Positions 6,111 through 64,000 of a stretch of 64,000 nt of DNA are shown piece by piece. Numbering within the stretch: position 1 is the stretch's first letter; each line of letters begins with the position of its first letter. The translations under genes were made by a program, and so were the position numbers. Source of the stretch: an uncultured virus (IMG/VR IMGVR_UViG_3300035093_000027) (taxonomy: Duplodnaviria > Heunggongvirae > Uroviricota > Caudoviricetes); the IMG/VR virus record IMGVR_UViG_3300035093_000027; one strand, written 5' to 3'. A model generated the notes under the pieces. It was not told the DNA's origin, searched no databases, and saw nothing but the letters and a program-made list of their open reading frames with translations.

Positions 6111-6887
6111 TTACGCCTGCTGGGCGACGAAGGCCTCGACGCGATCGCGCCACGCCTTGGTCTGCGCACCCGTCAGGTCGTGGCCCGAGCTCGTGAAGGC
6201 CTCGAAGCTTACGGGCGCCCCGCGCTCGGCCGCCCACGCCGCATTCTGCTGCGCGGCCGCGAACGGGATGGTCGTGTCGCGCGTGCCGTTGAGCATCACC
6301 GTCGGCGCCATGTTGGGGCGCCACAGACCCGACGGCATGTCGCCGTTGACCGCCACTGCTCCGCCGAGGAGCCGGCGGTGCTGGGTGGCCATCACGAGGG
6401 TCATCTCGCCGCCCGAGCTCGCCCCGGTGATGATGGGCTTGCCCAGCGTCGGTCGGCAGCGCGCGAGCGTCTTGACGAGCCGCGCGAGCCGCTCAGCGTG
6501 CTGCGCCCACGCGTGGGACTCGGCGTTGTCGAAGCCGCCCTCGAGCGTCGCCTTCAGCCCCGCCGGGAACCACATGTACCCGTGGATCGGCGACTCGAAG
6601 CCGCCCTCGGGAACGATGAGGCGTGCGCGTCCGATCCCGTTCATGCCCGACGCGTAGCCCTCGGGCGTCGCGTCGCGTGCGTGCAGGAGCACGACCATCG
6701 GCACGCGCTCCGAGCTCGACGCTCCGCCGCGCATGCGCTCGAGGTAGCGGACGCCCTCCGCGGTGCCTCCGTCCTCGCCGACGCCGCTGCAGTCGGGGCC
6801 GCCGAAGGCGTAGGCGATGCCGGCCGCGCCGAGCCCGGCAGCGGCTGCGCCAGCCGCTGCGACCCACGGCACCCACCTACGCGCCAT
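6111..6887 (-). CDS. Membrane-anchored alpha/beta hydrolase (phospholipase/carboxylesterase-like)
   Basis: N-terminal TM; VVLLH, nucleophile elbow GASSGG, NGTRD (Asp), SGH (His). Confidence 0.8.
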   Translation of the reverse strand: MARRWVPWVAAAGAAAAGLGAAGIAYAFGGPDCSGVGEDGGTAEGVRYLERMRGGASSSERVPMVVLLHARDATPEGYASGMNGIGRARLIVPEGGFESPIHGYMWFPAGLKATLEGGFDNAESHAWAQHAERLARLVKTLARCRPTLGKPIITGASSGGEMTLVMATQHRRLLGGAVAVNGDMPSGLWRPNMAPTVMLNGTRDTTIPFAAAQQNAAWAAERGAPVSFEAFTSSGHDLTGAQTKAWRDRVEAFVAQQA

Positions 6888-7140
6888 GGTCGATCTCCTG
6901 CGCGAGCTCGAAGTCGCTATCACGCAGCTCGAGCGTGTCGTGCCATGCACCGCCGGCCAGCGTGGCGTCGGGGACCCGGATCTCGACGAGGTAGACGCCG
7001 GGCCCGAGGAACGCGACGACGAGGCCGTCCGATCCGGACGGGTGCACGCGGATCGGCTCGGCGGCGCTCTGCAGGTTCGCGGTCGTGCGCACCGTCGCGC
7101 CGACGCGAGCATCGCTCACCGATCGCAGGGCTTCGTTCAT
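6877..7140 (-). CDS. Hypothetical protein
   Basis: Coupled ORF between hydrolase and transglycosylase. Confidence 0.55.
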   Translation of the reverse strand: MNEALRSVSDARVGATVRTTANLQSAAEPIRVHPSGSDGLVVAFLGPGVYLVEIRVPDATLAGGAWHDTLELRDSDFELAQEIDHGA

Positions 7141-7817
7141 CCGAAGAGTCCTCCGCACGCATTCAGCAGTTGCGCGTACCAGCCCATGCGCTCGCGCGTC
7201 GCCTCGACGTACTGTCGCACGTCGGACGACCACGTTCCGTTGGCCCCGCCTGCGCCCGCGTTGTATGCCGCGAACGCCCAGTCGGTGCCCTTGCCGGCGT
7301 CGATGAGCTTGCGCAGCAACGCGGCACCCAGCCACATGGACTGCCGCGGATCGCTGCGATCGACCCAGTCGGCGACGCCCTGCGCTTGGATCTTCGCGAG
7401 ACCCGGGTCGCGGTTGTTGGTCACCGCGGAGAAGGGCCACTTGTTGGCCTCGGCGAGATCCTTGAACACCGCGGCTGCGGTGCCGGGGATCATCTGCGTG
7501 AAGCCAGCGGCCACCGAGTTGTGCGCATCTGGATTCCAGCGCGACTCCGTGTGCACGATCGCGGCGAGCACCTCGGGGTCGAGCCCGAACTGGCTCGCGG
7601 CGTAGCGCGCCAGTGGCATGTACCGCCACGCGCGCTGCACCACCTCGTCGTTGACGTGGGTGCCGAGCGTCTGGCGATACGTATCGATCGAGCACGAGTC
7701 ACCTTCGGCTGGCCACGACGAGCTCGCCAACGCCGTGACCGCGTAGCCCGTCATGCCGATGGCCACTGCTCCGAGCGCAGCTCCTGTCCAGATCATCCAT
7801 GGGTCGAAGCGCTTCAT
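7137..7817 (-). CDS. Lytic transglycosylase (SLT domain) with N-terminal TM
   Basis: AIVHTESRWNPDA, GFTQMIPGTA, AFAAYNAG. Confidence 0.9.
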   Translation of the reverse strand: MKRFDPWMIWTGAALGAVAIGMTGYAVTALASSSWPAEGDSCSIDTYRQTLGTHVNDEVVQRAWRYMPLARYAASQFGLDPEVLAAIVHTESRWNPDAHNSVAAGFTQMIPGTAAAVFKDLAEANKWPFSAVTNNRDPGLAKIQAQGVADWVDRSDPRQSMWLGAALLRKLIDAGKGTDWAFAAYNAGAGGANGTWSSDVRQYVEATRERMGWYAQLLNACGGLFG

Positions 7818-8497
7818 GGGTTCGTCCCCGGACCGGCGGCCACGAGTAGGAGGTACGTGGGGTCGAGCAGCGCCGCAGGCGGAGCGCCGCCGTGCCACGG
7901 GAAGTTCTTGGTGGTGCCCGGCGCGTAGGTCTCGAAGTGCAGCATGTGGCTGTCGCAGTCGCTCTCACTGCCGACCATGCAGCCGATCCGTGCGATCTGT
8001 TGGCCCGCTCGCACTTGCGATCCGATGCCGACGCCGAAGTCGTTCCACGAGCCGGGGCGGATCTCGCCGTAGAGCGCAACGAAGCCGGGATGCGCCACGA
8101 GCATCGCAGACGTCCCGAGATGGAAGCTCTGCGTCGCGATGACGACGCCGTTCGCGATCGCGACGACGGGCTCGCCGTTGACGCCGTAGAGATCGACAGC
8201 CGCGTGGCGCCGTCCGTCTCGAGGCGCTCCAAAGGCACGCGACTGGTTGCCGTGCTTTCCGCCGTTGACGTCGACGTAGCCCACCTGACCGCGACGATCG
8301 TCACGGGTGAGCACGGGCCATACGACGCGACGAGGCACCGGTGCGAAGGGGGCAGGGCTCGGGCGCGGCGGCACGACGCCAGCGGGCAGACGCGGCGTCG
8401 AGAACAGCCCGACGACGCCGTAGCCCACCATGCCGAGCGCGACGGCGCCGAGTCCCGCGGCGGTCCAGATCTGCCACGCCTCGGGCTGGCGCGCCAT
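7814..8497 (-). CDS. M23 family peptidase with N-terminal TM
   Basis: FGAPR..RRHAAVDL, VRAGQQIARIG, HMLHFE. Confidence 0.9.
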   Translation of the reverse strand: MARQPEAWQIWTAAGLGAVALGMVGYGVVGLFSTPRLPAGVVPPRPSPAPFAPVPRRVVWPVLTRDDRRGQVGYVDVNGGKHGNQSRAFGAPRDGRRHAAVDLYGVNGEPVVAIANGVVIATQSFHLGTSAMLVAHPGFVALYGEIRPGSWNDFGVGIGSQVRAGQQIARIGCMVGSESDCDSHMLHFETYAPGTTKNFPWHGGAPPAALLDPTYLLLVAAGPGTNP

Positions 8498-8720: not shown

Positions 8721-9160
8721 CGCAGCCCCTCCACGGCGTTCTCGGCCTGCTCGAGCGCGGGCGTGGCCTCGCGGATCTCCTCGAGCGCGGTCGCGATCTC
8801 GTCGTACGCGCGGGCCAGCGCCTCGAAGGCCTCGCGGACCTGGCCGATCTGGTCAGGCGCGAACCCCTTGCGACTCAGGCAGGCCTCGCGGGCTTCCGGC
8901 GTGGATGCGTCGCCGAGCTCGGCGCGGCAGACGTTGATCGCCTCGAGCGTCGCATCGCGGTAGGCGCGGGCGCCCTCGTTGGCGGCAACGTCGACGATGG
9001 CCATCGATTTGTCGGCGTAGCGCGTCGCGTCCGATAGCGTCTGCGCGCATCCGACGAGGGTGACGAGGCCGAAGATCCCGAACCACGTCGCGATCGCCAT
9101 CACGCGCACGTGCTCGTAGTGGCGGATGGCAGCGATGGCGGCTCGGTCGATGGGTGTCAT
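8717..9160 (-). CDS. Putative lipoprotein with helical ectodomain (spanin-like position)
   Basis: Hydrophobic stretch ending LVGC (lipobox-like), next to lysins. Confidence 0.5.
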   Translation of the reverse strand: MTPIDRAAIAAIRHYEHVRVMAIATWFGIFGLVTLVGCAQTLSDATRYADKSMAIVDVAANEGARAYRDATLEAINVCRAELGDASTPEAREACLSRKGFAPDQIGQVREAFEALARAYDEIATALEEIREATPALEQAENAVEGLR

Positions 9161-9759
9161 TGGACCGGCTCGTACGTGTCGCCACCGACGGGCTCACCCG
9201 GTGGCAGCCGCATCGCACGGCTCCACTTGCGCAGGCCATACACCGCAGCGCCTGCGACCGCGACTCCGCCGACCACGAGCGCGACGGTCGTGGCGGCCGG
9301 GTTGCTCTTTCGGCTGGTGTGGCCGCCACCGACGGCGCCGCCCGCCGCCGCTCCGATGGGGCCGAGCATGCCGCCGAGCGCTCCACCGATCGCGCCTCGA
9401 CGATCGCGCTTGTCGGGCGCGCCGATGTGCCCACCGATCGCACCGCCGGCGATCGAGCCGGCCCACGACAGCAGGGGCAGGAGTGCGATCGACGACATCT
9501 CACCAGCGGTGATCTCCGTGGTTCCCGCGTCGGCCTCGTCCATGACCTTCTTCGTGGCCGCGCCGAGTCCCGCCGCTGCGCCGGCGATCCCGCCCAGCAG
9601 CGAGCCGACGCCGGCGCCGATCCCTGTCGTGAGCGCGGAATCTCCGTCCCATGGATTGCGGCGACGACGAGAGCGCCGACGACGTCGGCGACGCGGGTTC
9701 GCTTCGGGTGTAGCCGAGCTCGTCTTCGTGCGCTTCGCGGGGTTCTTCTTCTTCGCCAT
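9157..9759 (-). CDS. NP-motif glycine-zipper membrane protein
   Basis: KKKNP, NPRRRRRRRSRRRRNPW, RKSNP; GxxxG repeats. Confidence 0.75.
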   Translation of the reverse strand: MAKKKNPAKRTKTSSATPEANPRRRRRRRSRRRRNPWDGDSALTTGIGAGVGSLLGGIAGAAAGLGAATKKVMDEADAGTTEITAGEMSSIALLPLLSWAGSIAGGAIGGHIGAPDKRDRRGAIGGALGGMLGPIGAAAGGAVGGGHTSRKSNPAATTVALVVGGVAVAGAAVYGLRKWSRAMRLPPGEPVGGDTYEPVQ

Positions 9760-10307
9760 CACATGCCTTCGACTTCCGCCCATGCGAGCTCGACCAGTTG
9801 CGGCCATGTCAGGTTCATCGCAAGCGTCCACTGCTCGGCTTGCCAGAACGAGTTTGCGGTGTTGTTGCCGATGAGGCCGTCTTCGACGAGCGCGGGTCCG
9901 GGAACCGGCGCGGGCAGTTGGATCCGGCGCACCACGTTAAAGTCGCGCTGGAACTCGCTGACCGCCTGGATGGGCAGCGCGTCGATGACGGTCCACTGCT
10001 CGTTGGTGTGGATCGGGCCGACGTCATAGCCCCACGCATCGAGCTGGATCCCGAACGCATGCTCGTTGGGGTAGCGATCGATGTGCGGCCACGTCTCGAG
10101 ATGCGGGACGTAGTTGAAGTTGATCGTCTCCTTCGGACCAGACCCTGCACCCGCCAGCTTTTTCTGGCGCCAGAACCAGGCCGCCGTGCCGACGAGAGCA
10201 GCACCACCCACGGCCGCCACGATCTTCCGACCGCGGGACCATGGATTTCTCCCGCGCCGCTTGCTTCGAGAGCTACGGCGGCGCGGGTTGGGACGAGCTC
10301 GGCTCAC
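9759..10307 (-). CDS. NP-motif membrane protein with peptidoglycan-binding-like domain
   Basis: NPRRRSSRSKRRGRNPW + TM; AVSEFQRDFN...EDGLIGNNT. Confidence 0.7.
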   Translation of the reverse strand: MSRARPNPRRRSSRSKRRGRNPWSRGRKIVAAVGGAALVGTAAWFWRQKKLAGAGSGPKETINFNYVPHLETWPHIDRYPNEHAFGIQLDAWGYDVGPIHTNEQWTVIDALPIQAVSEFQRDFNVVRRIQLPAPVPGPALVEDGLIGNNTANSFWQAEQWTLAMNLTWPQLVELAWAEVEGM

Positions 10308-10993
10308 GAGACGTTCGAGGCCTCGGCGACGAGCGACTTCCACGTCTGCGTGGCCGACCACAACGACGCGTCGTAGAACGCGCGGGCCGTCCCCGCGCCG
10401 AACAGACCATCGGTCGCGATCGGACCCGAGGTCGACGGCTCCGGCGACAGCCCGAGCTGATCGGCCGCGGCGCGCACGAGGTTGTAGTCCTCCTGGAACT
10501 CGGTCGTCGCATCCATCGCGACCTTGCGCACCATGTTCCAGTCGTCCGCGTTGGTGTCACCGGGGTTGTAGCCGAGCACCTTGAGCTGCGTTCCGAGCTG
10601 CCGGTTGTTCGGCCATCGATCCTTGTGCGGCCACACGAACGGCGACACGGTCTGTCCGATCGCGGCGAGCGCGATGTGGCAGTCGACGTAGTTGCAGGCC
10701 TTCGCTCCGCTGCCGCCTCCGCCGCCGCCACCACCTCCACCACCTCCGCCACCACCACCGGGCGGGGGCGGCGGGGGAAACTGCTTCTTGCGACGGCGAT
10801 ACGCGGCGTAGCCGACTCCGGCTCCGAGCGCGACCGCGGATCCTGCCGCGATCATCACCCACGTAACCGCGGTCGGGTTCATGCGCGCGCGTCCGGGATT
10901 CTTGCGCTTGCGCTTGCCCTTCTTGCTGCGGCCGCCTCGGCGGCCGCGACGGGAGCCGCGGGGGTTGTCTTCGGGAGCCGGGAGCTGCTGCAT
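10304..10993 (-). CDS. NP-motif membrane protein with Pro/Gly linker and peptidoglycan-binding-like domain
   Basis: PEDNP..KRKRKNP + TM; poly-P/poly-G; EFQEDYN...TDGLFGAGT. Confidence 0.7.
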   Translation of the reverse strand: MQQLPAPEDNPRGSRRGRRGGRSKKGKRKRKNPGRARMNPTAVTWVMIAAGSAVALGAGVGYAAYRRRKKQFPPPPPPGGGGGGGGGGGGGGGGSGAKACNYVDCHIALAAIGQTVSPFVWPHKDRWPNNRQLGTQLKVLGYNPGDTNADDWNMVRKVAMDATTEFQEDYNLVRAAADQLGLSPEPSTSGPIATDGLFGAGTARAFYDASLWSATQTWKSLVAEASNVS

Positions 10994-15750: not shown

Positions 15751-16275
15751 TCAGCCTCCGCCACCCGTGTAGTTCTCCCATGTGCGCTGAGCGAGCTCGG
15801 ACGCCATCGCGCTGGTCGTCGCTCGGTAGGGTCTGTTGCACAACTGGTCGAGCGCCGCGGCAGCGATGACCACCACGTTCTCGTAGTTGTTCGGATTGTC
15901 CATGCTCATGAGCAGCGGCACGAACACCTGCTCCTGCAACAGCATCCGCTGCTCGAGCGACAGCGCCTGCGGGTTGATGCAGAAGCGCCGCTTGGCTCGG
16001 TTGAACGCGCTGCTGCGATCCTCTCCGCTTGGACCCGAGCCGCCTTGGCCTCCGCCAACCGGCTCGCACTGCTGCGTCGCATCATTCCACAGCATCGGCT
16101 GACCGTTGACGCCCGGCGGACAGAAGGGCTGCGTGCGCTTGGGCTTGCGGCGCATCGCTATAACGGCCGCGGTGACGCCACCGACGGCGGCCACGCTGAC
16201 CAACGCGATACCGATCTTCTTGTTGCGGCTGAGCTTGGGGTTGCGTCGGGGATTGCGTGCCAGTTGGTTCTTCAT
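15751..16275 (-). CDS. NP-motif membrane protein
   Basis: ARNPRRNPK + TM + RRKPK. Confidence 0.7.
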   Translation of the reverse strand: MKNQLARNPRRNPKLSRNKKIGIALVSVAAVGGVTAAVIAMRRKPKRTQPFCPPGVNGQPMLWNDATQQCEPVGGGQGGSGPSGEDRSSAFNRAKRRFCINPQALSLEQRMLLQEQVFVPLLMSMDNPNNYENVVVIAAAALDQLCNRPYRATTSAMASELAQRTWENYTGGGG

Positions 16276-17915: not shown

Positions 17916-17916
17916 G

Positions 17917-18687
17917 TCACCTCGCGCTGTAGGTCTCGCCGGCTTTGCGGATCGAGGAGCCGCGATCGACTACGACCGTCGTCGACGCGGTCTTCGGCAT
18001 CTGCCAGACCTGACCAACTACCACGCCACCCGCGACGAGCGCTGCGCCGCCGAGCGCAGTCCATGCGTAGATCGGTATCTGCCGCTTCGCGCCGCTTGCC
18101 CCGGGATCAACGATCGGTGGCGGAACTTGTCCATACGCCTTGAGCCCCTCGTCGCTCTTCTCGAGCAGGCAAAGCGCGTCGTTGATCACTGCCTGCGATC
18201 GGCCGATCCCTTCGACGGGGTTGGTCGTGAACGAGTTAGGGAGCGCCTTATAGGACGCTGTCATCCGGTTGTTGAGATCGAGCAACGCGTTCCATCGCGG
18301 ATACGTACCTCCGCTCGCTTCGTCCGGGTCAGTGCAGTTGGTCCCACCTGTTGCTTGACACTCGGCAGCCCCGAGCTCGCCGAGCCGGTCATTCGCCATG
18401 TCCGAGATCTGTCGCGCGAGCTCGCGCCACTCCTCGTAGTCGGAGCCGAACGCGACCATCCCGTACGGGTTCTCGAACGTGTACCCGGACACGGTCACGA
18501 CGAGCGATCGGTACTTTGACCCGCATCCCCGCGAGCGCTTCTTTTGCAGATCGCGTAACGCAACGACGCCGGATCCCAAGAGCGTCAGCACGCCCAGGGC
18601 GATCGATGCCTTCGCACCGCCGGCCATCGGATTGCGACGCGTGCGCTTGCGTCGCTTCGCGTTCGATCGCTTCGTCTTGCGTGCCAT
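17917..18687 (-). CDS. NP-motif membrane protein with two TM helices
   Basis: MARKTKRSNAKRRKRTRRNPM + TM; second TM near C-terminus. Confidence 0.7.
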   Translation of the reverse strand: MARKTKRSNAKRRKRTRRNPMAGGAKASIALGVLTLLGSGVVALRDLQKKRSRGCGSKYRSLVVTVSGYTFENPYGMVAFGSDYEEWRELARQISDMANDRLGELGAAECQATGGTNCTDPDEASGGTYPRWNALLDLNNRMTASYKALPNSFTTNPVEGIGRSQAVINDALCLLEKSDEGLKAYGQVPPPIVDPGASGAKRQIPIYAWTALGGAALVAGGVVVGQVWQMPKTASTTVVVDRGSSIRKAGETYSAR

Positions 18688-20079: not shown

Positions 20080-20083
20080 GTGA

Positions 20084-20236
20084 TCACGTCCGTCGCTTCG
20101 CGTTCTTCCGGATCTTGTTGAGCATGTACACGACGCCGATCTTCGCACCGATCCCGACGCCGACCAGCACGCCGATGATGGCCCACGCTGTCTTGGACGG
20201 GTTGGGCTTGTCGGGGTTGGTGGGGATCCGCTTCAC
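20084..20236 (-). CDS. Small NP-motif membrane protein
   Basis: (M)KRIPTNPDKPNPSK + TM + basic tail. Confidence 0.6.
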   Translation of the reverse strand: MKRIPTNPDKPNPSKTAWAIIGVLVGVGIGAKIGVVYMLNKIRKNAKRRT

Positions 20237-20265
20237 GGCCGCCTCATGTCCGGACCCTAACAGCG

Positions 20266-53105: not shown

Positions 53106-53594
53106 ATGAGCAAGCGACGACGCAACCAAGAAGAGGCGAAGAGCAACAAGGTCGCCTTCATCCTCGGCGCACTCGGAGCGGGCGCAGGTCTCGGCGTGGG
53201 CTACTGGATCGCGACGACCAAGTCTGCGCGCGACGCCGCCGACAAGCTCACGCAGGGATGGCGGATCCCGCAGCCCGACTTTCGCGTGCACGTCCCCGAG
53301 GAGCCGAACGACTTCCAGCGTCTCGACGACGAGATCTGCGACTGCGCCGAGCCGATCTTGGCCGAGGTGGCCGAGGACGCGGACTTCTCGGTCGTCATCG
53401 ACGAGATCCGGCTGTGCGTTGCGCGGCGTCTGTATCCCGACCTCGAGTGGCCGCCGGTGCCCGGCGATCACCCGAGCGTGGCCCAGCTCTGGAGCGAGGT
53501 CGGGTTCATGGTGCGCCGGGCCATCATCACCGACATGGTGTGCGACTCGCCGATCGCACCACCGCATCCGATTCCGATCCCTGAGGCGACATGA
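53106..53594 (+). CDS. Membrane-anchored protein with RRRN leader
   Basis: MSKRRRNQ..+TM. Confidence 0.7.
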   Translation: MSKRRRNQEEAKSNKVAFILGALGAGAGLGVGYWIATTKSARDAADKLTQGWRIPQPDFRVHVPEEPNDFQRLDDEICDCAEPILAEVAEDADFSVVIDEIRLCVARRLYPDLEWPPVPGDHPSVAQLWSEVGFMVRRAIITDMVCDSPIAPPHPIPIPEAT

Positions 53595-54481
53595 GACGAC
53601 GACCACTCCAGCGGAAGCCGAACCCGTCAGGCGCGACGTGGGCCGTGCTCGCGGCCGGCTCCGCTGCGGCCGTGGGTCTCGGCGCCTACGCGTGGAGGCG
53701 ACGCCGGCCCGGCACGATGCCGACCGAGCCGCCCAAGCCCGTCGAGCCCACCTCGACACCGCGCGAGTGGACGTGGCACCGCGCGACCGATCCGGGCTAC
53801 CCGTGGCTCGAGCCCACGCTGCACGTCGAGAACTATCCGACGCCCGGCATGTTCTTCGACGTCGGCGACGACACAGGCGCCTTCGATCCGAGCCAAGGCT
53901 TCGATGCGCTCGTCACTGCACTGCTTGGATCGGCCCTCGTAATGGCGGGCTGGGATCCGCAGCGTGCGATCGCGGTGGCGAAAGCACAGGGCCAGGATCC
54001 GGACGCGCTGCTCGGACGCACGATGCGACGCGACGTCCGACGCGCGCTCATCATGCCGGGCTCGTGGAACGACAAGATGTTCGGGCAGACCAACGCCAAC
54101 TACGCAGGCGGCACCGATCCGGGCAAGGCGTGCACGGGAGGCTCGACCAACGCGCCGTGCAACGACGGGATCCGCGATCCGAACGCGATGCCGGTGCGCT
54201 ACATGATGAACACCGCCGGCCGCGGCCTGAACTGGCTGCCGCGGCACACCGACGTCATGGATGCGATCGCTGCAGGACAGACGCCGGTACGAGGCACGAC
54301 GATCACCGGTGAGCCGTTCGCGGGGGCGCACTCGCACATGCTCCTGTGGATGCCGGCGTTCGACCTGGGGGCGCTGGCGGAGCCGAGCTCGACCGTGCGG
54401 GTGCTGTCGTCCGGCGGCGATCCGCCGCCCGTGGTGACCGATCTCGGCATCGACATGCACGGGGTCAGCCTGGCGGCGTAG
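53591..54481 (+). CDS. NP-motif membrane-anchored protein
   Basis: RKPNP + TM + RRRR. Confidence 0.7.
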   Translation: MRRRPLQRKPNPSGATWAVLAAGSAAAVGLGAYAWRRRRPGTMPTEPPKPVEPTSTPREWTWHRATDPGYPWLEPTLHVENYPTPGMFFDVGDDTGAFDPSQGFDALVTALLGSALVMAGWDPQRAIAVAKAQGQDPDALLGRTMRRDVRRALIMPGSWNDKMFGQTNANYAGGTDPGKACTGGSTNAPCNDGIRDPNAMPVRYMMNTAGRGLNWLPRHTDVMDAIAAGQTPVRGTTITGEPFAGAHSHMLLWMPAFDLGALAEPSSTVRVLSSGGDPPPVVTDLGIDMHGVSLAA

Positions 54482-54490: not shown

Positions 54491-54847
54491 ATGGCCGGTC
54501 CACTGATGCTCCTGGGATTTCGTCGTGACGACGACGGCATGTACACGATCGTCGATCCTACCGGCGTCGATCACATGGCCTGCGACGTCCTGAGCGTCGG
54601 TCGGATCGTCACCAAGCTCGTGCAGGATCCGGAGATGCCGCGGGCGAACCCCGAGGCCATCGAGCGCAACCCCGTCGTCGACGTCGCCGCACGCGTCGCT
54701 CGTCGGGTCGCGCCCGAGAAGTCCGCCCTGATGGACATGCTCGAGCCGCTGGCGCACCTCGTGACCAACGAGGTGTCGAAGAAAGTCGCGGCGCGACCCC
54801 GGCGCAACCCGGCAGGACGTCGCCGACGGGCGCAGAATCGCATGTGA
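54491..54847 (+). CDS. Small NP-motif protein
   Basis: RANP, ERNP, RPRRNPAGRRRR. Confidence 0.65.
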   Translation: MAGPLMLLGFRRDDDGMYTIVDPTGVDHMACDVLSVGRIVTKLVQDPEMPRANPEAIERNPVVDVAARVARRVAPEKSALMDMLEPLAHLVTNEVSKKVAARPRRNPAGRRRRAQNRM

Positions 54848-56581: not shown

Positions 56582-57142
56582 ATGACCCAAGACACCAACC
56601 GCCCACGCCCGCACGTCGTGCCCGATGATCCGCCGCGGAACGAGCGGAAGGCCAAGAACCCGAACTCTGAGACGTGGCGCACCGTCAAGACCGTCGCCCT
56701 GACGACCCTCGTCAGCGCGGCCGTTCTCGGCTCGGCATCATGGGTGTGGAATACGGCGACTCGCCGCGCCACACGAGCGGCGCGTCGTCGGCAGCAGCTC
56801 GAGCAGATCGAGAGCCCATACGCGCAGGCACCCGTCTACGCCGCGGCCGCGCAGCAAGGCTACGGCTGGCCGCAGACCAACATGCGCGACGTCCCCGAGG
56901 CGCTGCGCGACGGTCCGCGGCTGACCAACACGATGCCGCAGGCTGCTCCGCCGCCACAGGTGGTCGTTGCGCCCCCGAGCCCCGAGATCATCGCCGAGAT
57001 CCGCCGACTTGGGCAGCACGTCGACAAGCGCTTCTCGAACGTCGAGCGGCGCTTCGACGCGCTCGAGAACCCCGAGCTCGACGACGACGAGATTGAGGAC
57101 GAGGACGACGACGAGGAGGATGCGCCCCGCAGGCGCAACTGA
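56582..57142 (+). CDS. NP-motif membrane protein with acidic tail
   Basis: RKAKNP + TM; coiled coil; D/E tail. Confidence 0.7.
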   Translation: MTQDTNRPRPHVVPDDPPRNERKAKNPNSETWRTVKTVALTTLVSAAVLGSASWVWNTATRRATRAARRRQQLEQIESPYAQAPVYAAAAQQGYGWPQTNMRDVPEALRDGPRLTNTMPQAAPPPQVVVAPPSPEIIAEIRRLGQHVDKRFSNVERRFDALENPELDDDEIEDEDDDEEDAPRRRN

Positions 57143-57923: not shown

Positions 57924-59538
57924 ATGAAGACGAACAAGATCGCCAAGAACTCCACCGGCGGACTCGCCAAGAACCCGCGCCGTCGCAACGGCTCGCTTGC
58001 GCGCGTGATCACGGGATACGACAAGGCCTTCATGGTCATGGTGGGGGGTGCGCTCGCTGGCGCCGCCCTCGGCTACTTCGTCAAGCCGACGACGACGACC
58101 AAGACCGCGTCGAAGCGAGCTCAAGACGGCTTCGCGATCGGAGGCCTGGCTGTCGGCATTCCCGCGCTGGTCTACGCCGCGGTGAAGTCGTGAAGCACTC
58201 TTCGATCACCCGCCGGCGCAACCCCAGCGCGCTGGCGATCGCTCGGACCGATCCGCTCGGCCGCATCGCGGTGCCCATGATGGCGATCGCGTTGGGTTCG
58301 GCTGCGGGGATCCTCGCGGCCAAGCCGCTGGGGAAAACACCGATGACGGGCGGCCTCGTCGGTGCAGCAGCAGGACTGGCCGCATTTCTGCTGGTCGATC
58401 AAGTCGACCAGCGCCGCTAGGAGAACCCATGCCTCGAGCAGCCGCCATCCAAGGTCCCGTCCACCGTCCGCAGCGCAACCCCAACCCGGCGCCTCCCACG
58501 GTACGCGACGAAGCGGAGAAGAACCCGCGTCGGCGTCGCAAAGGCAAGGGCAAGCGCCGCCGCAACCCGAAGAACCCGAAGATCTCGTACACCACGGGCG
58601 CGATCATCGGGGCGGTACTGGGCTCGATCGGCGTGGCGATCTCGAGCGCTGCGAAGGCGCCGATGCCGGTGATCTCCACGGATGCGGGCGAGTTCGCGGT
58701 CGACACGACCTCGACGACGAAGCGCGCGCTCATGGGAGCGCTGCGAGGCGCGGCCGTCGGCCTCGCGGTGGGCGTCGGCGCGACGATCGTCGCGCGCGAG
58801 CTCAAGGTCGGCGCGGCGGGGCGGATGATGAACCCGACGGGCGTCGGCTCGGCCATCGTGCTCGGATCCTCCATCGCCGCGACCACCCTCGCGGTCGACC
58901 ACGGCATGACGAAGGCATTCGAGGCTGCATGAAGGCGCTGTCCAAGCGCCGACCCAACCTGTCGGCCGTCGCCACCACGACGTACGTCGGCACCGCCGCG
59001 CTCGTCGGCGCGCTGTCGAGCGCGCTCAGCTACACGGTGACCCACAACAAGCGCAGCGCGATCGCCTCGGGCGTCGCCGGCGTCGCCGTGGGCCTCGTGC
59101 TGGTCGCCTCGATGAGGCACCTATGAAACGCCGATCGAAGAAGCGCCGCCGCAACCCGGCGCGCCACACCAACCCGAGCGGTCTCATCACGACGCTGATC
59201 TGCGGAGCCGCAGCCGTCACCGGCATCACGCTGGTGTCGGTGGCGATGCAGTCGCGTCGCAACGCGGCCATCTCGATGTGCGGTCGCCTCGGCGGCCTTC
59301 CGGAGGGCGCATGAAACGACGCAATCCCGGCGCGCTGGCCACGTTCGCGTGGGCCTCGGCTTCAGCGGCGGTCGGCGGCCTCGCGGCCTACTTCACACTG
59401 CGCGAGGTGTACGCTGCGCAGGTCGTCGAGCGGTGCGACGTCATCCGCACGTCGAAGCAGCAGATGTCGATCCAGACCGGCATGCCCACTGCCATGCTGC
59501 CGGCTGTCACCAAGTCGCGCGCGCGCGCCTGGTTCTGA
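57924..59538 (+). CDS. Six small basic-leader membrane proteins (57924-58193, 58190-58420, 58429-58932, 58929-59126, 59123-59314, 59311-59538)
   Basis: KNPRRRN, RRRNP, KRRRNPKNP, KRRPN, KRRRNP, KRRNP, each followed by Gly/Ala-rich TM helices. Confidence 0.75.
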
Positions 59539-59554
59539 CCGAGGAGTCCGTCGA

Positions 59555-60274
59555 ATGGAACGCTCGAGCAACCCCCGTCGTCGTCGTGGTCGCAAGTCCC
59601 GGCGGCGCAACCCATGGGATCGTGATGCCGCGGTCGCGCTCGGCGTCGTCGGAGGGGTGCTCGGGATCGCATCCGCCTTCGCGGCGGCCTCCACTGATCG
59701 CGTGTGGACCCGTGCGGTCGTCGCTGGGGCGACAGGCGGCGCCGCGGGTGCGGTGCTCGGTGCTCTGCTGCCCAAGGGCAAGTCGAGCAACCCGCTGCAG
59801 AACCCGATCGGCACCGCAACGGCGGTCATCGCCGGCACAGCGCTCGCGCTCGTGCCCGTGGCGGTCGCGGCCAAGGTGATGCTGCCGAAGTCCGCCGGAC
59901 GCAGTGCGGCGCCGACAGTGCGCGGCAAGATGGGCGCGCACGCCATCGACGTCTACCGCAACGGTCCGACGTGGGCATGGCGGGCGCCGGACGTGAAGAT
60001 CTCGAGCACGAGCAACGAGAGCATGGCAGGCGCTGGCGACACGCGTCGCGACGCCATCGTCAACGCCTACTCCGATCTCGTGATCAAGGATCTCGGACCC
60101 GACGATCGGATCACGCTCGACTTCTATCCCGAATCGTTCCAGATCCAGGTGCTCTCGAGCAACGGATCGTGGACGTGGAACACGACGACTGGGGAAGGCG
60201 GAGTCGCGGACAGCCGCGGCGACGCGCTCACCAAAGCCCTCGACTGGGTCGACGCGCACAGCGAGCTCGACTGA
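59555..60274 (+). CDS. NP-motif multi-TM protein with C-terminal duplicated domain
   Basis: NPRRRRGRKSRRRNPW; W.W...DTRRDA and W.W...DSRGDA repeats. Confidence 0.7.
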   Translation: MERSSNPRRRRGRKSRRRNPWDRDAAVALGVVGGVLGIASAFAAASTDRVWTRAVVAGATGGAAGAVLGALLPKGKSSNPLQNPIGTATAVIAGTALALVPVAVAAKVMLPKSAGRSAAPTVRGKMGAHAIDVYRNGPTWAWRAPDVKISSTSNESMAGAGDTRRDAIVNAYSDLVIKDLGPDDRITLDFYPESFQIQVLSSNGSWTWNTTTGEGGVADSRGDALTKALDWVDAHSELD

Positions 60275-60288
60275 AGGAGAACACCACC

Positions 60289-61155
60289 ATGACCAAGCAA
60301 CGACTCGCGCTCGCCGGCACGCGCAACCATCCGGCTCCCAATCCCGCTCCCGCTTCCAAGGGCCCCGCGCCCGAGGACAACCCGCGTCGCCGTCGACGCA
60401 AGGGCGGCGGCAAGCGTCGTCGCAAGGCGCGTCGCAACCCCGTGTCGGTCGCCGGCACGCTGGTCGCGGTGGGCCTCGGCGCCGCAGCGGTCGCCGGCGG
60501 CTACGTGGCGTATCGCGGATGGCAGCGAGTCCGCGGCCAGATGAAGATGACGCCCGGTGGCGAGATCGCCGGACTGCTGTCGAAGGGCGCGACCCTGGCC
60601 GACTCGCCGCAGATCGTGTCCGACGTGCGCATGCCCGTCCAGCTCGCGGTGAGCTCGGCCGCGATCCCGAGTGGCTACACGGGCGCGCCGACGCTGCGCG
60701 TGCTGCTGCAGAACGAGGACGGCACGTACACCGCCCGTGACGTCGCGAACGTCGCCTTCGGATTGACGTCAGGCGGCGCCACGGATGCGGTCGTGCTGTC
60801 CGGTCGCATGCCCGACGGATCGACCTTCGAGCAGCGCAACGAGTTGCCCGGCGGCGTCAGCGAGCCCGCGGTCGCGCGCCTGGTCACCGACGTCAAGGGC
60901 ACACTGGCCCGCGACCTCTACGAGCGCATGCTCGCGGAGATCGTGACCAAGAAGGTCGACTGGGAGGATCCGGCGGCTCGCGACGCGTCGATCAAGCACG
61001 TGCTCGGGATCGTCGTACCGCAGGTCGACTACAGCCGCGGCCTCGAGCCGTACTCGTTCGGCGATCTGCCGAGCTCGGTGTGGAGCGCCGCGCAGCTCAT
61101 GGGCGCGCTCGCGCAGCAGTCCATGCTGAACAAGGCGCTGCAGGGCGGCGGCTGA
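60289..61155 (+). CDS. NP-motif membrane-anchored protein
   Basis: AAGGAG RBS; PAPEDNPRRRRRKGGGKRRRKARRNP + TM. Confidence 0.75.
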   Translation: MTKQRLALAGTRNHPAPNPAPASKGPAPEDNPRRRRRKGGGKRRRKARRNPVSVAGTLVAVGLGAAAVAGGYVAYRGWQRVRGQMKMTPGGEIAGLLSKGATLADSPQIVSDVRMPVQLAVSSAAIPSGYTGAPTLRVLLQNEDGTYTARDVANVAFGLTSGGATDAVVLSGRMPDGSTFEQRNELPGGVSEPAVARLVTDVKGTLARDLYERMLAEIVTKKVDWEDPAARDASIKHVLGIVVPQVDYSRGLEPYSFGDLPSSVWSAAQLMGALAQQSMLNKALQGGG

Positions 61156-61156
61156 C

Positions 61157-61552
61157 GTGAGCGAGGACGGCGACACCCTTCTGGCCCGCGCGTTCGCTGC
61201 AGGTGCAGCGAACGTGTCGGTGATGAAGATCGGCGACGACTACGTCGCGACGATCTCGGCGTGGCGCACGATCGATGATCATAGCGGCGTGAGCCACAGC
61301 GAGCACGCGAGCAGCCGCGGCGAAGGCTCGACGCCGGACTTCGCGATGCGCGAGGCGATCGCGAAGCTGCAGCCGACGCCGGCGATCGAGGTTCGCGAGA
61401 TCAAGCGCAACCGTGCGCTCGGCGAAGCTCGCGATGTCGTGCCCGCCGCGCTCGCCGACCGCGTCACACGGATCAAGGGATTGCTACCGCCGCCGGTCGA
61501 GCCGGCGGCCATCGACGCGGTCGAGCGCGTCGCCGACGAGACGGGGAGCTGA
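61157..61552 (+). CDS. Hypothetical protein
   Basis: ORF in operon. Confidence 0.55.
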   Translation: MSEDGDTLLARAFAAGAANVSVMKIGDDYVATISAWRTIDDHSGVSHSEHASSRGEGSTPDFAMREAIAKLQPTPAIEVREIKRNRALGEARDVVPAALADRVTRIKGLLPPPVEPAAIDAVERVADETGS

Positions 61553-61557
61553 GCGGC

Positions 61558-63291
61558 ATGGAGTTGGCGTGGCACCGCTTCGAGACCCACCGCAGCCCGA
61601 AGGGGCACGGGATGCGCGCCCGCGCAGGGAGCAAGACGCTCGAGGCATGGCAGGACGCCTCCGGCCGATGGCGGGTGCGATCCACAGATCGTCCACAGGA
61701 CAAGCCGGACTTACGATCCTGGTCAGAAGCGCGCGCATGGGCGGAAAAGCGCGCGTCTTCGAACCCCGTGCCCGAGCAGAACCCCCAGGTCGTCCACAGC
61801 GGTGTCACGGATCGTGACACCCGTCGCGAACGAAAGAACGACATGTCAGCACGCAAGAATCCCTCACGCCGCTGGGTGCGTGTCCCGGGCGCATGGCTGC
61901 GCAAGGGCATGATCGTCAAGGCGCCGTTGTGGGTGCAGCAGTTCGACGAGGATGACGACTACAAGAAGCGGCCGAAGACGGTCCCGTGGAAGAAGTTCTG
62001 GGCTCCCGATCCGGCCCCGAAGATCTTGCGCGTCGACTACTGGGGCGACTATCACGTCGATCCGCTCGACGACGATGGCGAGAGCGATCTGCAAGCGCTC
62101 AACGACGATGGCACGGACGCATATGGATCCGTCGACCTGAACACCGCCGACTACCCCGATACATGGATGGTCGACGTCGATTCGATCGACATGGACGATG
62201 AGACCAGAGCCGAGACGCTCGCCGGCGGCTTCTATCCGCCCGACCCGAAGGAGAACCCCATGAGCGCAGCACCCAAGCCCCGCGGCAAGACCAGCAACCC
62301 GGCACAGGGCAAGCGCGGCGAGGTCGACACGACCGCGGGCGACGAACTCGAGCTCTACATCGACAACGACCAGCCGTTGTACCGCCAGTGGGAAACGATC
62401 ACGGCCAACATCGCCAAGCACAAGGCGCGCGGCAACTACAGCCACGAGCGCGCGGTCGACGGGTACATGTACCTCGTCGACGCCGGCGCGAAGAAGTACG
62501 CGAAGGAGTGGGACTCGGCGTCCAACTGGAACACGATGTTCGACTCGGCGACGCGCCGCTACGTCGCTGGCGAGTACGCCAAGAGCTTCGAGCAGAATCT
62601 GCGCGAGGAGTCCCGCTTCGCGCCGGTCAAGAAGTCGAAGAAGAACCCGCTCGCGTCCTTCGACGAGCTGTCCGCGCACGAGCAGGTCGAAGCGATCCAC
62701 GCGTACGCGCGCGGTCTCGAGATCGGCTCGGGTGCCGCGGCGATGACGTACACGACCACGCCGAAGTACAACGCGTTCGTCGCCATCGGCGAGAGCGACG
62801 CGAAGACGGCGCTGACCAGCTCGCGTGCGGGCAACCCGACGCCGCCGCAGTCCGCCTGGGTCGTCGTCGAGCGCGGGCGCGCGACGGGACTGTTCTTCGC
62901 CCCCGAGGCGCTCGAGCGCACCTCGGCGAGCAAGATCCCGACCGGTCCGGCCGGGCGCCGCCGCAACGGCGCCGGACTGGGCGCCTTCCTCGGCAGCTTG
63001 GCCGGTTCGGTGGTCGGCACGGCGCTCGCGGCCGCTGGCGCGATGTCGCTGGCCAGCACGGGCGGCCTGGTGGTCGCGCCGCTGTCGCTGCTGATCTCGG
63101 CCGCGGGCGGTGCGATCGGTGGTCACGTCGGCGCATCGAGCAAGAGCAAGCGCCGCGGAGCGATCGGCGGCGGCGTCGGTGGTCTGTTCGGTCCGCTGGG
63201 CGCGGCACTGGGCGGCTACCTCGGCGGTCGCAAGGCCGACAAGCGCAAGAACCCGCGCGAGCGCGCGATCGCTCGACGCCTGACGGCGTGA
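61558..63291 (+). CDS. Polyprotein-like multi-module NP protein with C-terminal glycine zipper
   Basis: Eight NP sites separating modules; ELELYIDND..LYRQ phage-type domain; glycine zipper similar to 9157-9759. Confidence 0.7.
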   Translation: MELAWHRFETHRSPKGHGMRARAGSKTLEAWQDASGRWRVRSTDRPQDKPDLRSWSEARAWAEKRASSNPVPEQNPQVVHSGVTDRDTRRERKNDMSARKNPSRRWVRVPGAWLRKGMIVKAPLWVQQFDEDDDYKKRPKTVPWKKFWAPDPAPKILRVDYWGDYHVDPLDDDGESDLQALNDDGTDAYGSVDLNTADYPDTWMVDVDSIDMDDETRAETLAGGFYPPDPKENPMSAAPKPRGKTSNPAQGKRGEVDTTAGDELELYIDNDQPLYRQWETITANIAKHKARGNYSHERAVDGYMYLVDAGAKKYAKEWDSASNWNTMFDSATRRYVAGEYAKSFEQNLREESRFAPVKKSKKNPLASFDELSAHEQVEAIHAYARGLEIGSGAAAMTYTTTPKYNAFVAIGESDAKTALTSSRAGNPTPPQSAWVVVERGRATGLFFAPEALERTSASKIPTGPAGRRRNGAGLGAFLGSLAGSVVGTALAAAGAMSLASTGGLVVAPLSLLISAAGGAIGGHVGASSKSKRRGAIGGGVGGLFGPLGAALGGYLGGRKADKRKNPRERAIARRLTA

Positions 63292-63292
63292 C

Positions 63293-63601
63293 ATGGCACG
63301 GCGGCGCAACCCGATCCCGGTATGGCTGTGGGCCCTGCCGGTGGGCGCCGTCGCCGTAGCGGCCGTCGTCGTCGCGCGGCGCCGCAGCGCTGGCGACGGG
63401 TCGATCTACCTGTACTGGTCCGAGCTGCTGCCGCGCGGCTACAAGGACACGTACCCCGGCTACGTCCCGCACATCCAGCGCGAGGACGGCACCGAGCACG
63501 TCGTGCTCGACGGTCGGCTGGCGGAGGCTGAGGCCGAGCGCGACGCGATCAACGAGATCGAGAGACGCGCAGGGATCCCGCGTCCCGGGAGACCTGCGTG
63601 A
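63293..63601 (+). CDS. NP-motif membrane protein
   Basis: MARRRNPIP + TM + RRR. Confidence 0.7.
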   Translation: MARRRNPIPVWLWALPVGAVAVAAVVVARRRSAGDGSIYLYWSELLPRGYKDTYPGYVPHIQREDGTEHVVLDGRLAEAEAERDAINEIERRAGIPRPGRPA

Positions 63602-64000
63602 AGCCCGAGACGATCACGCTCGGTCGTCTCGACGGCGAAGTGCGGCAGATGCTCGCGCGCGGCGGGATCGACCCGCGGCACGCGACGGTCGTGCTGCACA
63701 CGCCACTCGAGCGCGAGCACGCCAAGAACCGACGGCGCTACGCGCAGTGCGTCCCCGACGAGCTCCACTTCGAGTTCGCAACCGCGATCCTGTCGCTCGC
63801 CGCCGAGCACCGTACCGGCATCGTCGCCCACGAGGTGGGTCACTGCATCGCGTGGCGCGAGCAGGGCAACCATGGCGAGGACGATGCCGACGAGGCCTCC
63901 GAGCGCGTGCTCGGGATCCCGATCTGCTACGACCTCGACTGGCCGGGCAAGGGGCTGCAGTGCCTCTGCCAGATCGAGACGATCCGCGCCCTGAACCCGC
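63598..64000 (+). CDS. HEXXH zinc metallopeptidase-like protein (3'-truncated, absent from ORF track)
   Basis: GTGA-coupled start; translated by hand: GIVAHEVGHCIAW..HGEDDADE; open to window end (..IRALNP). Confidence 0.65.
   Translation, partial: MKPETITLGRLDGEVRQMLARGGIDPRHATVVLHTPLEREHAKNRRRYAQCVPDELHFEFATAILSLAAEHRTGIVAHEVGHCIAWREQGNHGEDDADEASERVLGIPICYDLDWPGKGLQCLCQIETIRALNP

Follow-up and report, generated by a model that had tools for sequence, protein, structure and literature searches.

A recurrent polybasic, Asn-Pro-closed N-terminal module on small membrane proteins of an uncultivated virus-like element

Definition and inventory of the tag

Sixteen small membrane proteins encoded in the analysed window (64 kb of a 130-kb contig from an uncultivated, virus-like element of high GC content) were found to carry the same unit at their N-termini, namely an R/K-rich arm, a closing Asn-Pro (NP) and a Gly/Ala-rich membrane helix. 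The tag is real and conserved, and is best described as a portable N-terminal membrane-anchor module, whose job may be anchoring, docking or cutting. The module comprises about 25-70 residues, and its arm, with a net charge of +3 to +15, is predicted to be disordered. In seven tagged proteins NP stands on both sides of the arm; arms between two NP measure 11-20 residues, and four of these seven 11-12. Pfam, PHROGs and NCBIfam gave no match to the tag, and no explanation of it was found in the literature or in cultured phages. In a profile search the matches were confined to relatives of this lineage, which is a small group of uncultivated, high-GC, virus-like elements of 130-172 kb.

A sequence-only reading of this DNA had proposed about 20 tagged, otherwise unrelated proteins. 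The tag set exists and every site on that list was confirmed in frame, although the count of N-terminal tags is 16. In the right arm the sites read QRKPNP (53591), RKAKNP (56582), AKNPRRRN (57924), TRRRNP (58190), KRRRNPKNP (58429), KRRRNP (59123), MKRRNP (59311), SRRRNPW (59555), KARRNP (60289) and MARRRNP (63293); in the left arm they lie on the minus strand, in genes starting at 9759, 10307/10361, 10993, 16275, 18687 and 20236. The carriers are indeed mostly unrelated, with at least nine unrelated bodies bearing the tag. The exceptions are 9157, 58429, 59555 and the C-terminus of 61558, which are paralogous in a common glycine-zipper membrane domain, and the 9759 and 10304 genes, which have a C-terminal domain in common. 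The tagged proteins are the following.

9157..9759, minus strand: 200 aa, MAKKKNP...TPEANP-RRRRRRRSRRRR-NP-WDGDSALTTGIGAGVGS; full NP-polybasic-NP cassette, glycine-zipper multi-helix body, extra SRKSNP before the last helix
9759..10361, minus strand: ..RARPNP-RRRSSRSKRRGR-NP-WSRGRKIVAAVGGAALVG; start uncertain, GTG at 10307 fitting better than 10361
10304..10993, minus strand: 229 aa, APEDNP-RGSRRGRRGGRSKKGKRKRK-NP-GRARMNP-TAVTWVMIAAGSAVALG
15751..16275, minus strand: 174 aa, MKNQLARNPRRNPKLSRNKKIGIALVSVAAVGG; AGGAGG upstream of the start
17917..18687, minus strand: 256 aa, MARKTKRSNAKRRKRTRRNP-MAGGAKASIALGVLTLLG
20084..20236, minus strand: mini-protein, 49-50 aa, VKRIPTNPDKPNPSKTAWAIIGVLVGVGIG...KIRKNAKRRT
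53591..54481, plus strand: 296 aa, MRRRPLQRKPNP-SGATWAVLAAGSAAAVGLGAYAW-RRRRP
56582..57142, plus strand: 186 aa, ..PRNERKAKNP-NSETWRTVKTVALTTLVSAAVLG
57924..58193, plus strand: 89 aa, ..GLAKNPRRRNGSLARV..MVMVGGALAGAALG; NP ahead of the basic run, which ends in Asn-Gly
58190..58420, plus strand: 76 aa, VKHSSITRRRNP-SALAIARTDPLGRIAVPMMAIALGSAAG; weakest gene call (score 11.0, GTG start)
58429..58932, plus strand: 167 aa, ..RPQRNPNP..EAEKNP-RRRRKGKGKRRR-NP-KNP-KISYTTGAIIGAVLGS
59123..59314, plus strand: 63 aa, MKRRSKKRRRNPARHTNP-SGLITTLICGAAAVTGITLV
59311..59538, plus strand: 75 aa, MKRRNP-GALATFAWASASAAVGGLAAYF; GGAGG upstream of the start
59555..60274, plus strand: 239 aa, MERSSNP-RRRRGRKSRRR-NP-WDRDAAVALGVVGGVLG
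60289..61155, plus strand: 288 aa, ..NHPAPNP..APEDNP-RRRRRKGGGKRRRKARR-NP-VSVAGTLVAVGLGAAAVAGG, then a conserved globular body
63293..63601, plus strand: 102 aa, MARRRNP-IPVWLWALPVGAVAVAAVVVA-RRRS

Near-miss tags were seen at 53106 (KRRRNQ) and 58929 (KRRPNL). Other NP carriers and untagged membrane proteins of the window are listed below.

54491..54847, plus strand: 118 aa, C-terminal basic-NP without a helix, ..AARPRRNPAGRRRRAQNRM (RPRRNP)
61558..63291, plus strand: 577 aa, eight NP in linker-like stretches (SSNPVPEQNP, ARKNP, KENP, KTSNP, KSKKNP, RAGNP); RRRN-G before the glycine-zipper helices and KRKNP after them, at the C-terminus; C-terminal membrane domain 43% identical to 9157-9759 over 113 aa (unfiltered BLASTP)
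6111..8497, minus strand: three membrane-anchored wall/envelope hydrolases, namely carboxylesterase-like, SLT transglycosylase and M23 peptidase

The three hydrolases have ordinary short anchors without a polybasic arm, and their only NPs lie far from the anchor. Since lysin-type enzymes of the same element use untagged, ordinary anchors, the tag appears to add something beyond insertion.

Enrichment and distribution of Asn-Pro

The protein set consisted of 93 gene calls (19,339 aa); both gene and helix calls were made with simple scripts of our own. Null distributions were obtained from 2000 within-protein shuffles, and from a local variant in which residues were shuffled only inside 20-aa blocks. 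NP was counted 87 times against 33.6 expected (within-protein shuffles, mean 34.1 ± 5.6, maximum 55). The motif [RK]{2}.{0,3}NP occurred 23 times, far above the background of both the within-protein (1.7 ± 1.3) and the block shuffles (2.9 ± 1.7, maximum 10). Within the first 80 aa it was present in 15 proteins, compared with 0.6 after shuffling and 1.8 (maximum 7) after local shuffling.

When the arms were taken as 7000-20300 and >=46600 (9,656 aa; remainder 9,683 aa), with boundaries drawn after the gene map had been seen, NP was found 78 times in the arms and 9 times in the remainder, [RK]NP 26 times and never (binomial p 1.4e-8), and [RK]{2}.{0,3}NP 23 times and never. The replication block held 9 NP against 12 expected. 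All 26 [RK]NP thus lie in the two outward-facing arms, in agreement with the earlier remark that the basic form is missing from replication genes.

The enrichment is specific to Asn before Pro: NP reached 3.5x, versus 0.8x, 1.0x and 1.4x for SP, TP and DP. Codons differ between sites (AAC CCG 38, AAC CCC 25, AAT CCC 7, AAT CCG 6, AAT CCA 4, plus others), so that conservation acts at the protein level, as had been claimed. NP is also enriched in linkers of large non-membrane stretches, and it borders the arm on the side away from the helix as well. Its flanks fall into two classes, one with acidic residues or Pro before and basic residues after, the other with basic residues before and neutral ones after, and no extended consensus beyond NP was common to both.

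Membrane helix, charge and start sites

A hydrophobic helix was found 0-20 residues after NP in 16/16 tags, as expected from the proposal that NP precedes a Gly/Ala-rich transmembrane helix. A 20-aa stretch with a Kyte-Doolittle hydropathy (KD) >1.2 follows 17.6% of the 74 arm NP sites with enough downstream sequence, compared with 3.8% of all positions. All tagged proteins but one (15 of 16) contain a 17-residue window with KD >= 1.4; the exception, 59311, did not reach the threshold. Judged on the hydropathy scale only, the tags have the positive flank and the hydrophobic stretch of about 17-25 residues of type II signal anchors, and membrane anchoring of the carriers is a well-founded prediction. 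The net charge before the helix was +3 to +15 in tagged proteins versus 0 to +4 in untagged N-terminal anchors (n=7, outer gene blocks, the esterase at 6111 counted in). A second basic cluster lies directly behind the helix in 9/16 tags, which blurs the topology argument.

The tag was shown to be translated from proper starts, and Shine-Dalgarno-like motifs precede the start codons that take it in. In the AF2 model of the 60289 protein a helix starts at residue 52, directly after N50-P51, with a low pLDDT (33-36). Four Cys are invariant in the predicted external body of the 17917 family, as would be expected for a domain outside the cytoplasm.

Conservation in relatives

The helix-proximal NP was kept in 10/11 informative homologue sequences (50-83% identity), while the arginines drift and the basic run varies in length and sequence; the upstream NP was kept in 4/4. 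The tag therefore passed the conservation check suggested with the original proposal. NP of 17917..18687 is retained in P0020, L001 and P0033, where the basic run changes length and sequence; both NP of 20084..20236 in L001 (7857-8006) and P0031; NP of 56582..57142 in P0034, where the site reads RRQKNP; 3/4 NP of 9157..9759 in P0035 (51% identity); and both NP of 60289..61155 in P0024, P0025 and P0028. The counter-example is the L001 orthologue of 15751..16275, which reads MKRRRRRNLSRNQKLG, with Asn kept and Pro lost.

These data bear on a historical or compositional origin, by which a single Arg-rich, GC-rich cassette (CGC repeats ending in AAC CCG) would have been copied between neighbours with NP as a passive part. 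Tandem rows of tagged genes do exist (57924-61155 and 9157-10993), paralogues occur among the carriers, and in P0028 a 9157-type module is fused in front of a 60289-type body. This origin is nevertheless improbable: NP is fixed across the homologues while the arm drifts in sequence and length, its codons vary from site to site, local-composition shuffles fail to reproduce the pattern, and the enrichment reaches non-cassette sites.

Possible roles of the tag

The best explanation, put forward tentatively, is an N-in signal anchor in which the polyarginine arm faces the cytoplasm and NP acts either as a combined hinge and cap or as a mark to be recognised, with no cutting assumed. By the positive-inside rule, the arm would be unable to cross the membrane and would fix the protein N-in/C-out, with the body outside the cytoplasm and the arm on the cytoplasmic face. 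There it could bind a polyanion, which may be DNA or the acidic surface of lipids or proteins, and such binding would cluster the whole membrane-protein set at one site, for example an assembly site or a virion membrane. Asn-Pro would form a fixed joint between the floppy arm and the helix, with Asn as cap and Pro as first helical residue. A plain cap would be expected to use Ser, Thr or Asp before Pro as well, but SP, TP and DP are not enriched; since Asn is the sole residue used, NP may also be read by a partner protein. The signal anchor is favoured by the enrichment with its Asn specificity and arm restriction, the hydrophobic stretches in 16/16 tags, the high upstream charge, the Shine-Dalgarno-like motifs, the conservation of NP, the at least nine unrelated bodies, the external Cys and, at low pLDDT, the AF2 helix start. 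Against it count NP on the far side of the arm and in linkers, the trailing basic clusters in 9/16 tags and the one orthologue without Pro.

The strict Asn specificity would also suit a processing site, at or beside which a protease of virus or host, or self-cleavage driven by Asn, would free protamine-like arms or trim the membrane proteins. The seven arms flanked by NP on both sides, four of them of 11-12 residues, and the NP at linker-like seams of large arm proteins point the same way. In several viral coat proteins that cleave themselves, Asn acts as the nucleophile, and FlhB/YscU, asparagine peptide lyases, self-cleave at Asn↓Pro-Thr-His (PMC3207474; the arrow marks the cut). Processing is still rather unlikely. 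No protease family besides the M23 wall peptidase was matched in the 64 kb window (Pfam on 70, PHROGs on 93 and NCBIfam on 48 proteins), and the α/β-hydrolase at 6111-6887 looks carboxylesterase-like; as the window covers 64 kb of the 130-kb contig, a protease may lie outside it. Moreover, the two classes of NP site have no consensus beyond NP, and self-cleavage by Asn depends, in the known cases, on a folded catalytic environment, while the tag NP sits in low-complexity arms.

Alternatively, the tag could be an address, with a viral factor reading arm plus NP and bringing the carriers to a patch of membrane specific to the virus, or into particles. Such a role would explain why one element has two anchor classes, tagged and, on the lysins, ordinary, why the tag occurs only in those arms where fibre-like and wall-degrading genes are found as well, why an invariant NP adjoins freely drifting arginines, and why the module is found on unrelated bodies. 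It is considered doubtful, since no receptor candidate was found and the profile search gave no tag outside the relatives of this lineage. Virion membership of the carriers is also putative; the 64 kb yielded no gene for a capsid, portal, terminase or packaging ATPase. The sequence-only reading was therefore partly supported: the tag holds, while its interpretation as an address or cleavage site, in a window without a recognised protease and with flanks without an extended consensus, the description of the carriers as virion proteins, and the internal virion membrane that it proposed, were left unsupported.

That reading had also found no fit to Tat, lipobox or prepilin signals, and here it proved right. 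A variant twin-arginine (Tat) export signal is suggested by arginine pairs followed by a Gly/Ala-rich stretch of mild hydrophobicity, but is very improbable. In the 11 tags with RR directly before NP, RR is followed by Asn-Pro and not by the hydrophobic pair of S/T-R-R-x-F-L-K; RR-x-hydrophobic-hydrophobic was read by eye in 0/15 aligned tag segments; Tat n-regions do not resemble arms that reach +15 and have NP at both ends; and 18687-19403 (DRRRKVTLAAGATG), without NP, looks more Tat-like. Cys occurs in only 1/15 tag segments (59123, ..TLICG..), where the lipobox L-[AS]-[GA]-C, which closes the hydrophobic stretch of bacterial lipoprotein signals, is not matched. Type IV prepilin/class III signals have a short basic leader that ends in Gly, with F/M-x-x-x-E opening the helix, and their G↓F...E pattern was seen in 0/15. 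C-terminal sorting signals consist of a motif, a helix and a basic tail, plus a dedicated sortase; the tag is N-terminal with the order arm-motif-helix, and no sortase or exosortase was matched, which sets it apart from LPXTG/NPQTN and PEP-CTERM signals.

Comparison with known systems

The phages PRD1 and PM2 contain a membrane with small virion membrane proteins. The element resembles them in its many small membrane-protein genes clustered beside membrane-anchored wall hydrolases, but shows no match in sequence or family, and the window yielded neither a double-jelly-roll capsid nor a packaging ATPase. We know of no polybasic-NP arms in PRD1- or PM2-like phages.

The adenovirus protease cuts the core precursors pVII and pX/mu at Gly-based sites, (M/I/L)-x-G-x↓G, freeing basic core peptides. 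Both systems have short and very basic stretches in a large DNA virus, with a brief, recurring motif at their borders. In contrast to adenovirus, the motif is NP, the arms are joined to membrane helices, and no cysteine protease was matched in the 64 kb of 130 kb.

In reovirus mu1, the residue after the cut at Asn-42 is Pro. The tag may have a functional break point at Asn-Pro in common with mu1 and with FlhB/YscU. The cut in mu1 is at Asn-42, and one of these cuts sets free a membrane-active peptide from the N-terminus of a viral protein (PMC3207474). Unlike the tag sites, which lie in low-complexity sequence, these cuts depend on a particular folded domain. A place among the asparagine peptide lyases (MEROPS N6, FlhB/YscU; N7, mu1) is improbable: NPTH was present at 0/87 NP, and Pfam gave no FlhB-type domain among 70 proteins.

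In helix N-capping, Asn, Ser, Thr and Asp are interchangeable at the cap and Pro occupies the first helical position. The tag is similar in that NP lies 0-20 residues before the helix, directly before it in the AF2 model (pLDDT 33-36), and dissimilar in that only Asn is used and NP also stands where no helix follows.

Uncleaved N-terminal signal anchors (type II membrane proteins) follow the positive-inside rule. The tag resembles them in combining a positive N-terminal stretch with one hydrophobic helix and a body predicted to lie outside the cytoplasm. It differs in its far higher charge (up to +15), in its invariant Asn-Pro joint, often with a second NP before the arm, and in recurring as a module on 16 proteins of a single element, whose lysins have ordinary anchors.

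Gene content of the window

The 64-kb window is part of a 130,310-bp contig and has a GC content of 62-70%. No DNA match to it was found among 50,697 records of cultured phages. With our own codon-bias gene caller and one manual split, 93 genes were obtained. They form a central block of replication and DNA-handling genes and two arms, both pointing outward from it.

About 20.3-46.5 kb, plus 1-7 kb: central block, with a DUF927 primase-helicase, a Toprim primase, RecD/Dda-like and SNF2-like helicases, a Gp3-like recombination directionality factor, a C5 methylase, an HNH nuclease and DUF5131
About 7.1-20.2 kb, minus strand: left arm, with two glycine-rich fibre-like paralogues, a TIM-barrel glycosidase-like protein and membrane-anchored SLT and M23 wall hydrolases
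6111-6887: carboxylesterase-like hydrolase, just outside the left arm
From 46.6 kb, plus strand: right arm, nearly all genes without a family match

Searches of the window with Pfam and PHROGs recognised no capsid, portal, terminase or packaging ATPase, and no tRNA was found; hence the term virus-like element for the source. A virion role for the arm-encoded proteins is assumed.

Some genes merit individual description:

6111-8497, minus strand: three consecutive membrane-anchored envelope/wall hydrolases (carboxylesterase/PHA-depolymerase-like, SLT and M23); the N-terminal anchors of the SLT and M23 proteins are nearly identical (63% identity over 27 aa)
11097-12938 and 12974-14800, both minus strand: adjacent 610-aa paralogues (64% identity) with a Gly_rich_2 domain, weak tail-fibre/minor-tail PHROG matches and, in each, an internal duplicated '..SVK[MST]NPT..DPQ' motif
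14812-15747, minus strand, 311 aa: TIM-barrel glycoside-hydrolase-like protein ('GTA TIM-barrel-like', DUF4015/GHL10; language-model features 0.95, Atlas structure TM 0.66-0.70)
19654-20148, minus strand, and 47408-48157, plus strand: one gene per arm, sharing a domain of about 85 aa (31% identity, E 6e-6)
27240-28226, plus strand: a single ORF of low gene score joining an HNH endonuclease-like N-terminal half to a DNA-methyltransferase-like fragment, perhaps a fused gene or one in decay
50193-51065: an Atlas search returned nothing usable
55735-56148 and 56145-56420, both minus strand: Doc/Fic-type toxin and MazE/AbrB-like antitoxin genes amid the right-arm genes and oriented against them, which look like an inserted addiction or defence cassette

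Anatomy of the tag

Sixteen proteins begin with a basic arm rich in arginine and lysine, followed by Asn-Pro (NP) and, 0-20 residues further on, by a Gly/Ala-rich hydrophobic stretch. The net charge ahead of the helix ranges from +3 to +15, and a second, smaller basic cluster lies behind the helix in 9 of the 16 tags. Shine-Dalgarno-like motifs precede start codons that include the tag. In seven proteins NP stands on both flanks of the arm, enclosing 2, 11, 12, 12, 12, 17 or 20 residues, as in these examples:

TPEANP-R7SR4-NP-W
APEDNP-RRRRRKGGGKRRRKARR-NP-V
EAEKNP-RRRRKGKGKRRR-NP

Near-misses are found at 53106 (KRRRNQ) and 58929 (KRRPNL). NP is also common in linker-like stretches of large arm proteins, with eight in 61558-63291 and six in 48364-50193. 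The hydrolases at 6111, 7137 and 7814 and the anchored proteins at 8717 and 18687 have short ordinary anchors without arm or NP. This division into tagged and ordinary anchors fits a docking address, in which the tag would direct its carriers to a partner; no candidate reader was found, and we regard such an address as unlikely. Export by the Tat pathway fits the tags poorly and is hardly credible. As a separate observation, the N-terminus of the protein at 18687-19403 (minus strand), MPLDRRRKVTLAAGATGLAAVG, resembles a classical twin-arginine signal more closely than does any NP tag, and NP is missing from it.

Statistics of NP

Every site named in the sequence-only reading was found, in frame. 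Among the 19,339 residues encoded in the window NP occurs 87 times, against 33.6 expected by composition and 34.1 +/- 5.6 (maximum 55) in 2000 within-protein shuffles. The basic form, [RK]{2}.{0,3}NP, exceeded its shuffled background clearly (23 vs 1.7 +/- 1.3). The excess persisted when residues were shuffled inside 20-residue blocks only, which preserves local composition (2.9 +/- 1.7, maximum 10). Within the first 80 residues the motif was present in 15 proteins, compared with 0.6 expected (local shuffle 1.8, maximum 7).

The enrichment is confined to the arms, where 78 NP were counted against 22.1 expected (9,656 residues); outside them there were 9 against 11.9 (9,683 residues). The claim that replication genes lack the basic form also held, since [RK]NP occurs 26 times in the arms and never elsewhere (binomial p 1.4e-8, with arm limits that were set after the gene map had been viewed, not blind). 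The enrichment in the arms is 3.5-fold, with a z of about 12 that matches in size those of GG and RR. The pairs SP, TP and DP stay near expectation there (0.8, 1.0 and 1.4), showing that the enrichment is Asn-specific. Of 150 arm runs of at least two basic residues, 28 are followed directly by Asn (5.2-fold), and in 16 of these 28 the Asn is followed by Pro; outside the arms Asn ranks below the top eight residues that follow basic runs.

A motif at the DNA level was rejected. Read along their coding strand, arm genes contain AAYCC 78 times in frame 0, 3 times in frame 1 and twice in frame 2, with 15 on the reverse strand; GC3 bias lowers the weight of this frame contrast. A better control comes from the remainder of the window, where the codon bias is the same and only 9 frame-0 occurrences were counted. 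The NP codons are mixed (AAC/AAT with CCG/CCC/CCA/CCT), and orthologous sites in the 14.8-kb DNA of a relative, L001, show synonymous differences such as AAT CCG vs AAT CCC. Because of the frame-0 occurrence, the varied codons, the synonymous differences and the fixed place before the helix, the sequences point to selection acting on the protein.

Kinship of the carriers

Composition-corrected BLASTP paired only 10304 with 9759 (C-terminal domain), a domain shared with 48364, the two fibres, and 19654 with 47408. Without the filter, a glycine-zipper membrane domain was seen to be common to 9157, 58429, 59555 and the C-terminus of 61558 (E 1e-23 to 1e-9). The other ten tagged proteins matched one another across the tag only, and at least nine unrelated bodies therefore bear it. 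By these comparisons the carriers appear mostly unrelated to one another. A pure duplication history of the carriers fits poorly and is very improbable.

Conservation in relatives

The 547-aa protein at 16272-17915 (minus strand), rich in invariant Trp, Cys and His and without a family, is the best-conserved marker of the lineage. It has 15 relatives (43-79% identity) on contigs of up to 172 kb. No relative was found in IMG/VR or in species genomes, nor any match by tblastn against phage and plasmid collections. Its AF2 model has a pLDDT of only 55 and gave no Foldseek match against the PDB at E <= 0.001.

For the tag, the comparison sample consisted of the L001 DNA (62% identity, same gene order as the window) and of isolated proteins. 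The helix-proximal NP, between arm and helix, was kept in 10 of 11 informative sequences.

Fate of the NP in relatives of tagged window proteins
17917 family: helix-proximal NP kept in P0020, L001 and P0033
60289 family: helix-proximal NP kept in P0024, P0025 and P0028
49-aa protein: helix-proximal NP kept in L001 and P0031 (both NPs)
56582 family: helix-proximal NP kept in P0034
9157 family: three of four NPs kept in P0035
15751 family: helix-proximal NP lost in the L001 orthologue (RRN-L)

Three proteins (P0021, P0026 and P0027) were left out as uninformative, being called from a Met just past the NP. P0022, which is an L001 protein, was also called from a Met past the NP, and the DNA upstream of it encodes arm and NP. 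The upstream NP, ahead of the arm, was kept in 4 of 4 cases. Arm length and sequence vary freely; the 60289 family, for example, has arms of 17, 17, 17 and 32 residues. Not all NPs are fixed, as the fibre sites (11097 and 12974) read ND and NA in L001. In P0028 a module of the 9157 type is fused ahead of a body of the 60289 type; the module therefore moves between genes. Polybasic arm, NP and helix together form a conserved, translated module restricted to the arms of the gene map.

Proposed function

The tag is best read as a signal anchor whose polyarginine cassette is delimited by NP. According to the positive-inside rule, a strongly basic N-terminal stretch is not moved across the membrane. 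Since an arm of up to +15 could not cross, the tagged proteins would sit N-in/C-out, with their arms lining the cytoplasmic face and NP serving as a joint that links a floppy arm to the helix. There the arms could attach to DNA or to acidic surfaces of lipid or protein, which would bring the carriers together at one site. Four invariant cysteines in the body of the 17917 family fit an external domain. An AF2 model, with a pLDDT of only 33-36, starts the helix at residue 52, immediately after N50-P51. This orientation, with NP as a joint, is our leading reading, held tentatively and at somewhat less than even confidence. Its weak point lies in two features, the specificity for Asn and the additional NP at the arm's end away from the helix, which give the look expected of a site that is recognised or cut.

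Cleavage at NP has precedents in viral coat proteins that cut themselves by means of Asn and in FlhB, which is cut at Asn|Pro-Thr-His (PMC3207474). In the window, however, no protease was found, the sites lack a folded catalytic context, NPTH is absent from them and their flanks have no common consensus, so cleavage seems improbable. The hydrolase at 6111-6887 was rejected as a protease: its Peptidase_S9 match is local and spans 30 residues around the nucleophile elbow, the best relatives of solved structure are carboxylesterases, and NCBIfam suggests an esterase or depolymerase. The sole protease-like motif seen near the tags is HEVGH (zincin-like HExxH), in an ORF directly after the last tagged gene.

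63598-63999, plus strand, running off the window: ORF with HEVGH, no family match and no structure match

The sequence-only reading had proposed a membrane tag for virion sorting or cleavage; the membrane tag stands, and virion sorting or cleavage would be possible roles of it.

Spread and significance

A 43-position profile of 15 window tags, searched against 1.84 billion representative proteins, gave 8 matches at E <= 0.001; the profile is short and NP-anchored by construction, and at such low power few matches are no evidence of absence elsewhere. The matches comprised a spurious repeat protein, the window's own protein and six tagged proteins, of which four were homologous to window genes and two had new bodies (P0032 and P0036). 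A degenerate DNA pattern for RRRRNPW hit at least 119 stretches in IMG/VR, nearly all out-of-frame chance matches in GC-rich DNA, and a hydrophobic stretch followed in 1 of 119 among the matches listed. The tag is absent from Pfam, PHROGs and NCBIfam, and no published description was found among titles and abstracts. A match of the 9157 tag to PspM/Rv2743c (20.8 bits vs a cut-off of 80) was taken as compositional.

The tagged lineage is a virus-like group of 130-172 kb without a cultured or annotated relative, and the tag offers a handle for sorting its otherwise blank genes. Even as an anchor only, it would be a clean, previously uncatalogued module marking a set of co-localised membrane proteins. 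A bolder reading, which we consider doubtful though worth stating, takes NP beside basic runs as lineage-wide punctuation read by a putative dedicated viral factor. Such a factor would either cut out arginine peptides resembling protamines or tether an entire set of membrane and linker proteins to the genome or to a membrane made by the virus. If NP is read, this might explain how such elements neutralise a large genome and hold it at the membrane. With a protease or docking factor as reader, the tag would give bacterial viruses a new code for maturation or targeting, and an NP code read by a dedicated factor would be a maturation or sorting system without a described counterpart among them.
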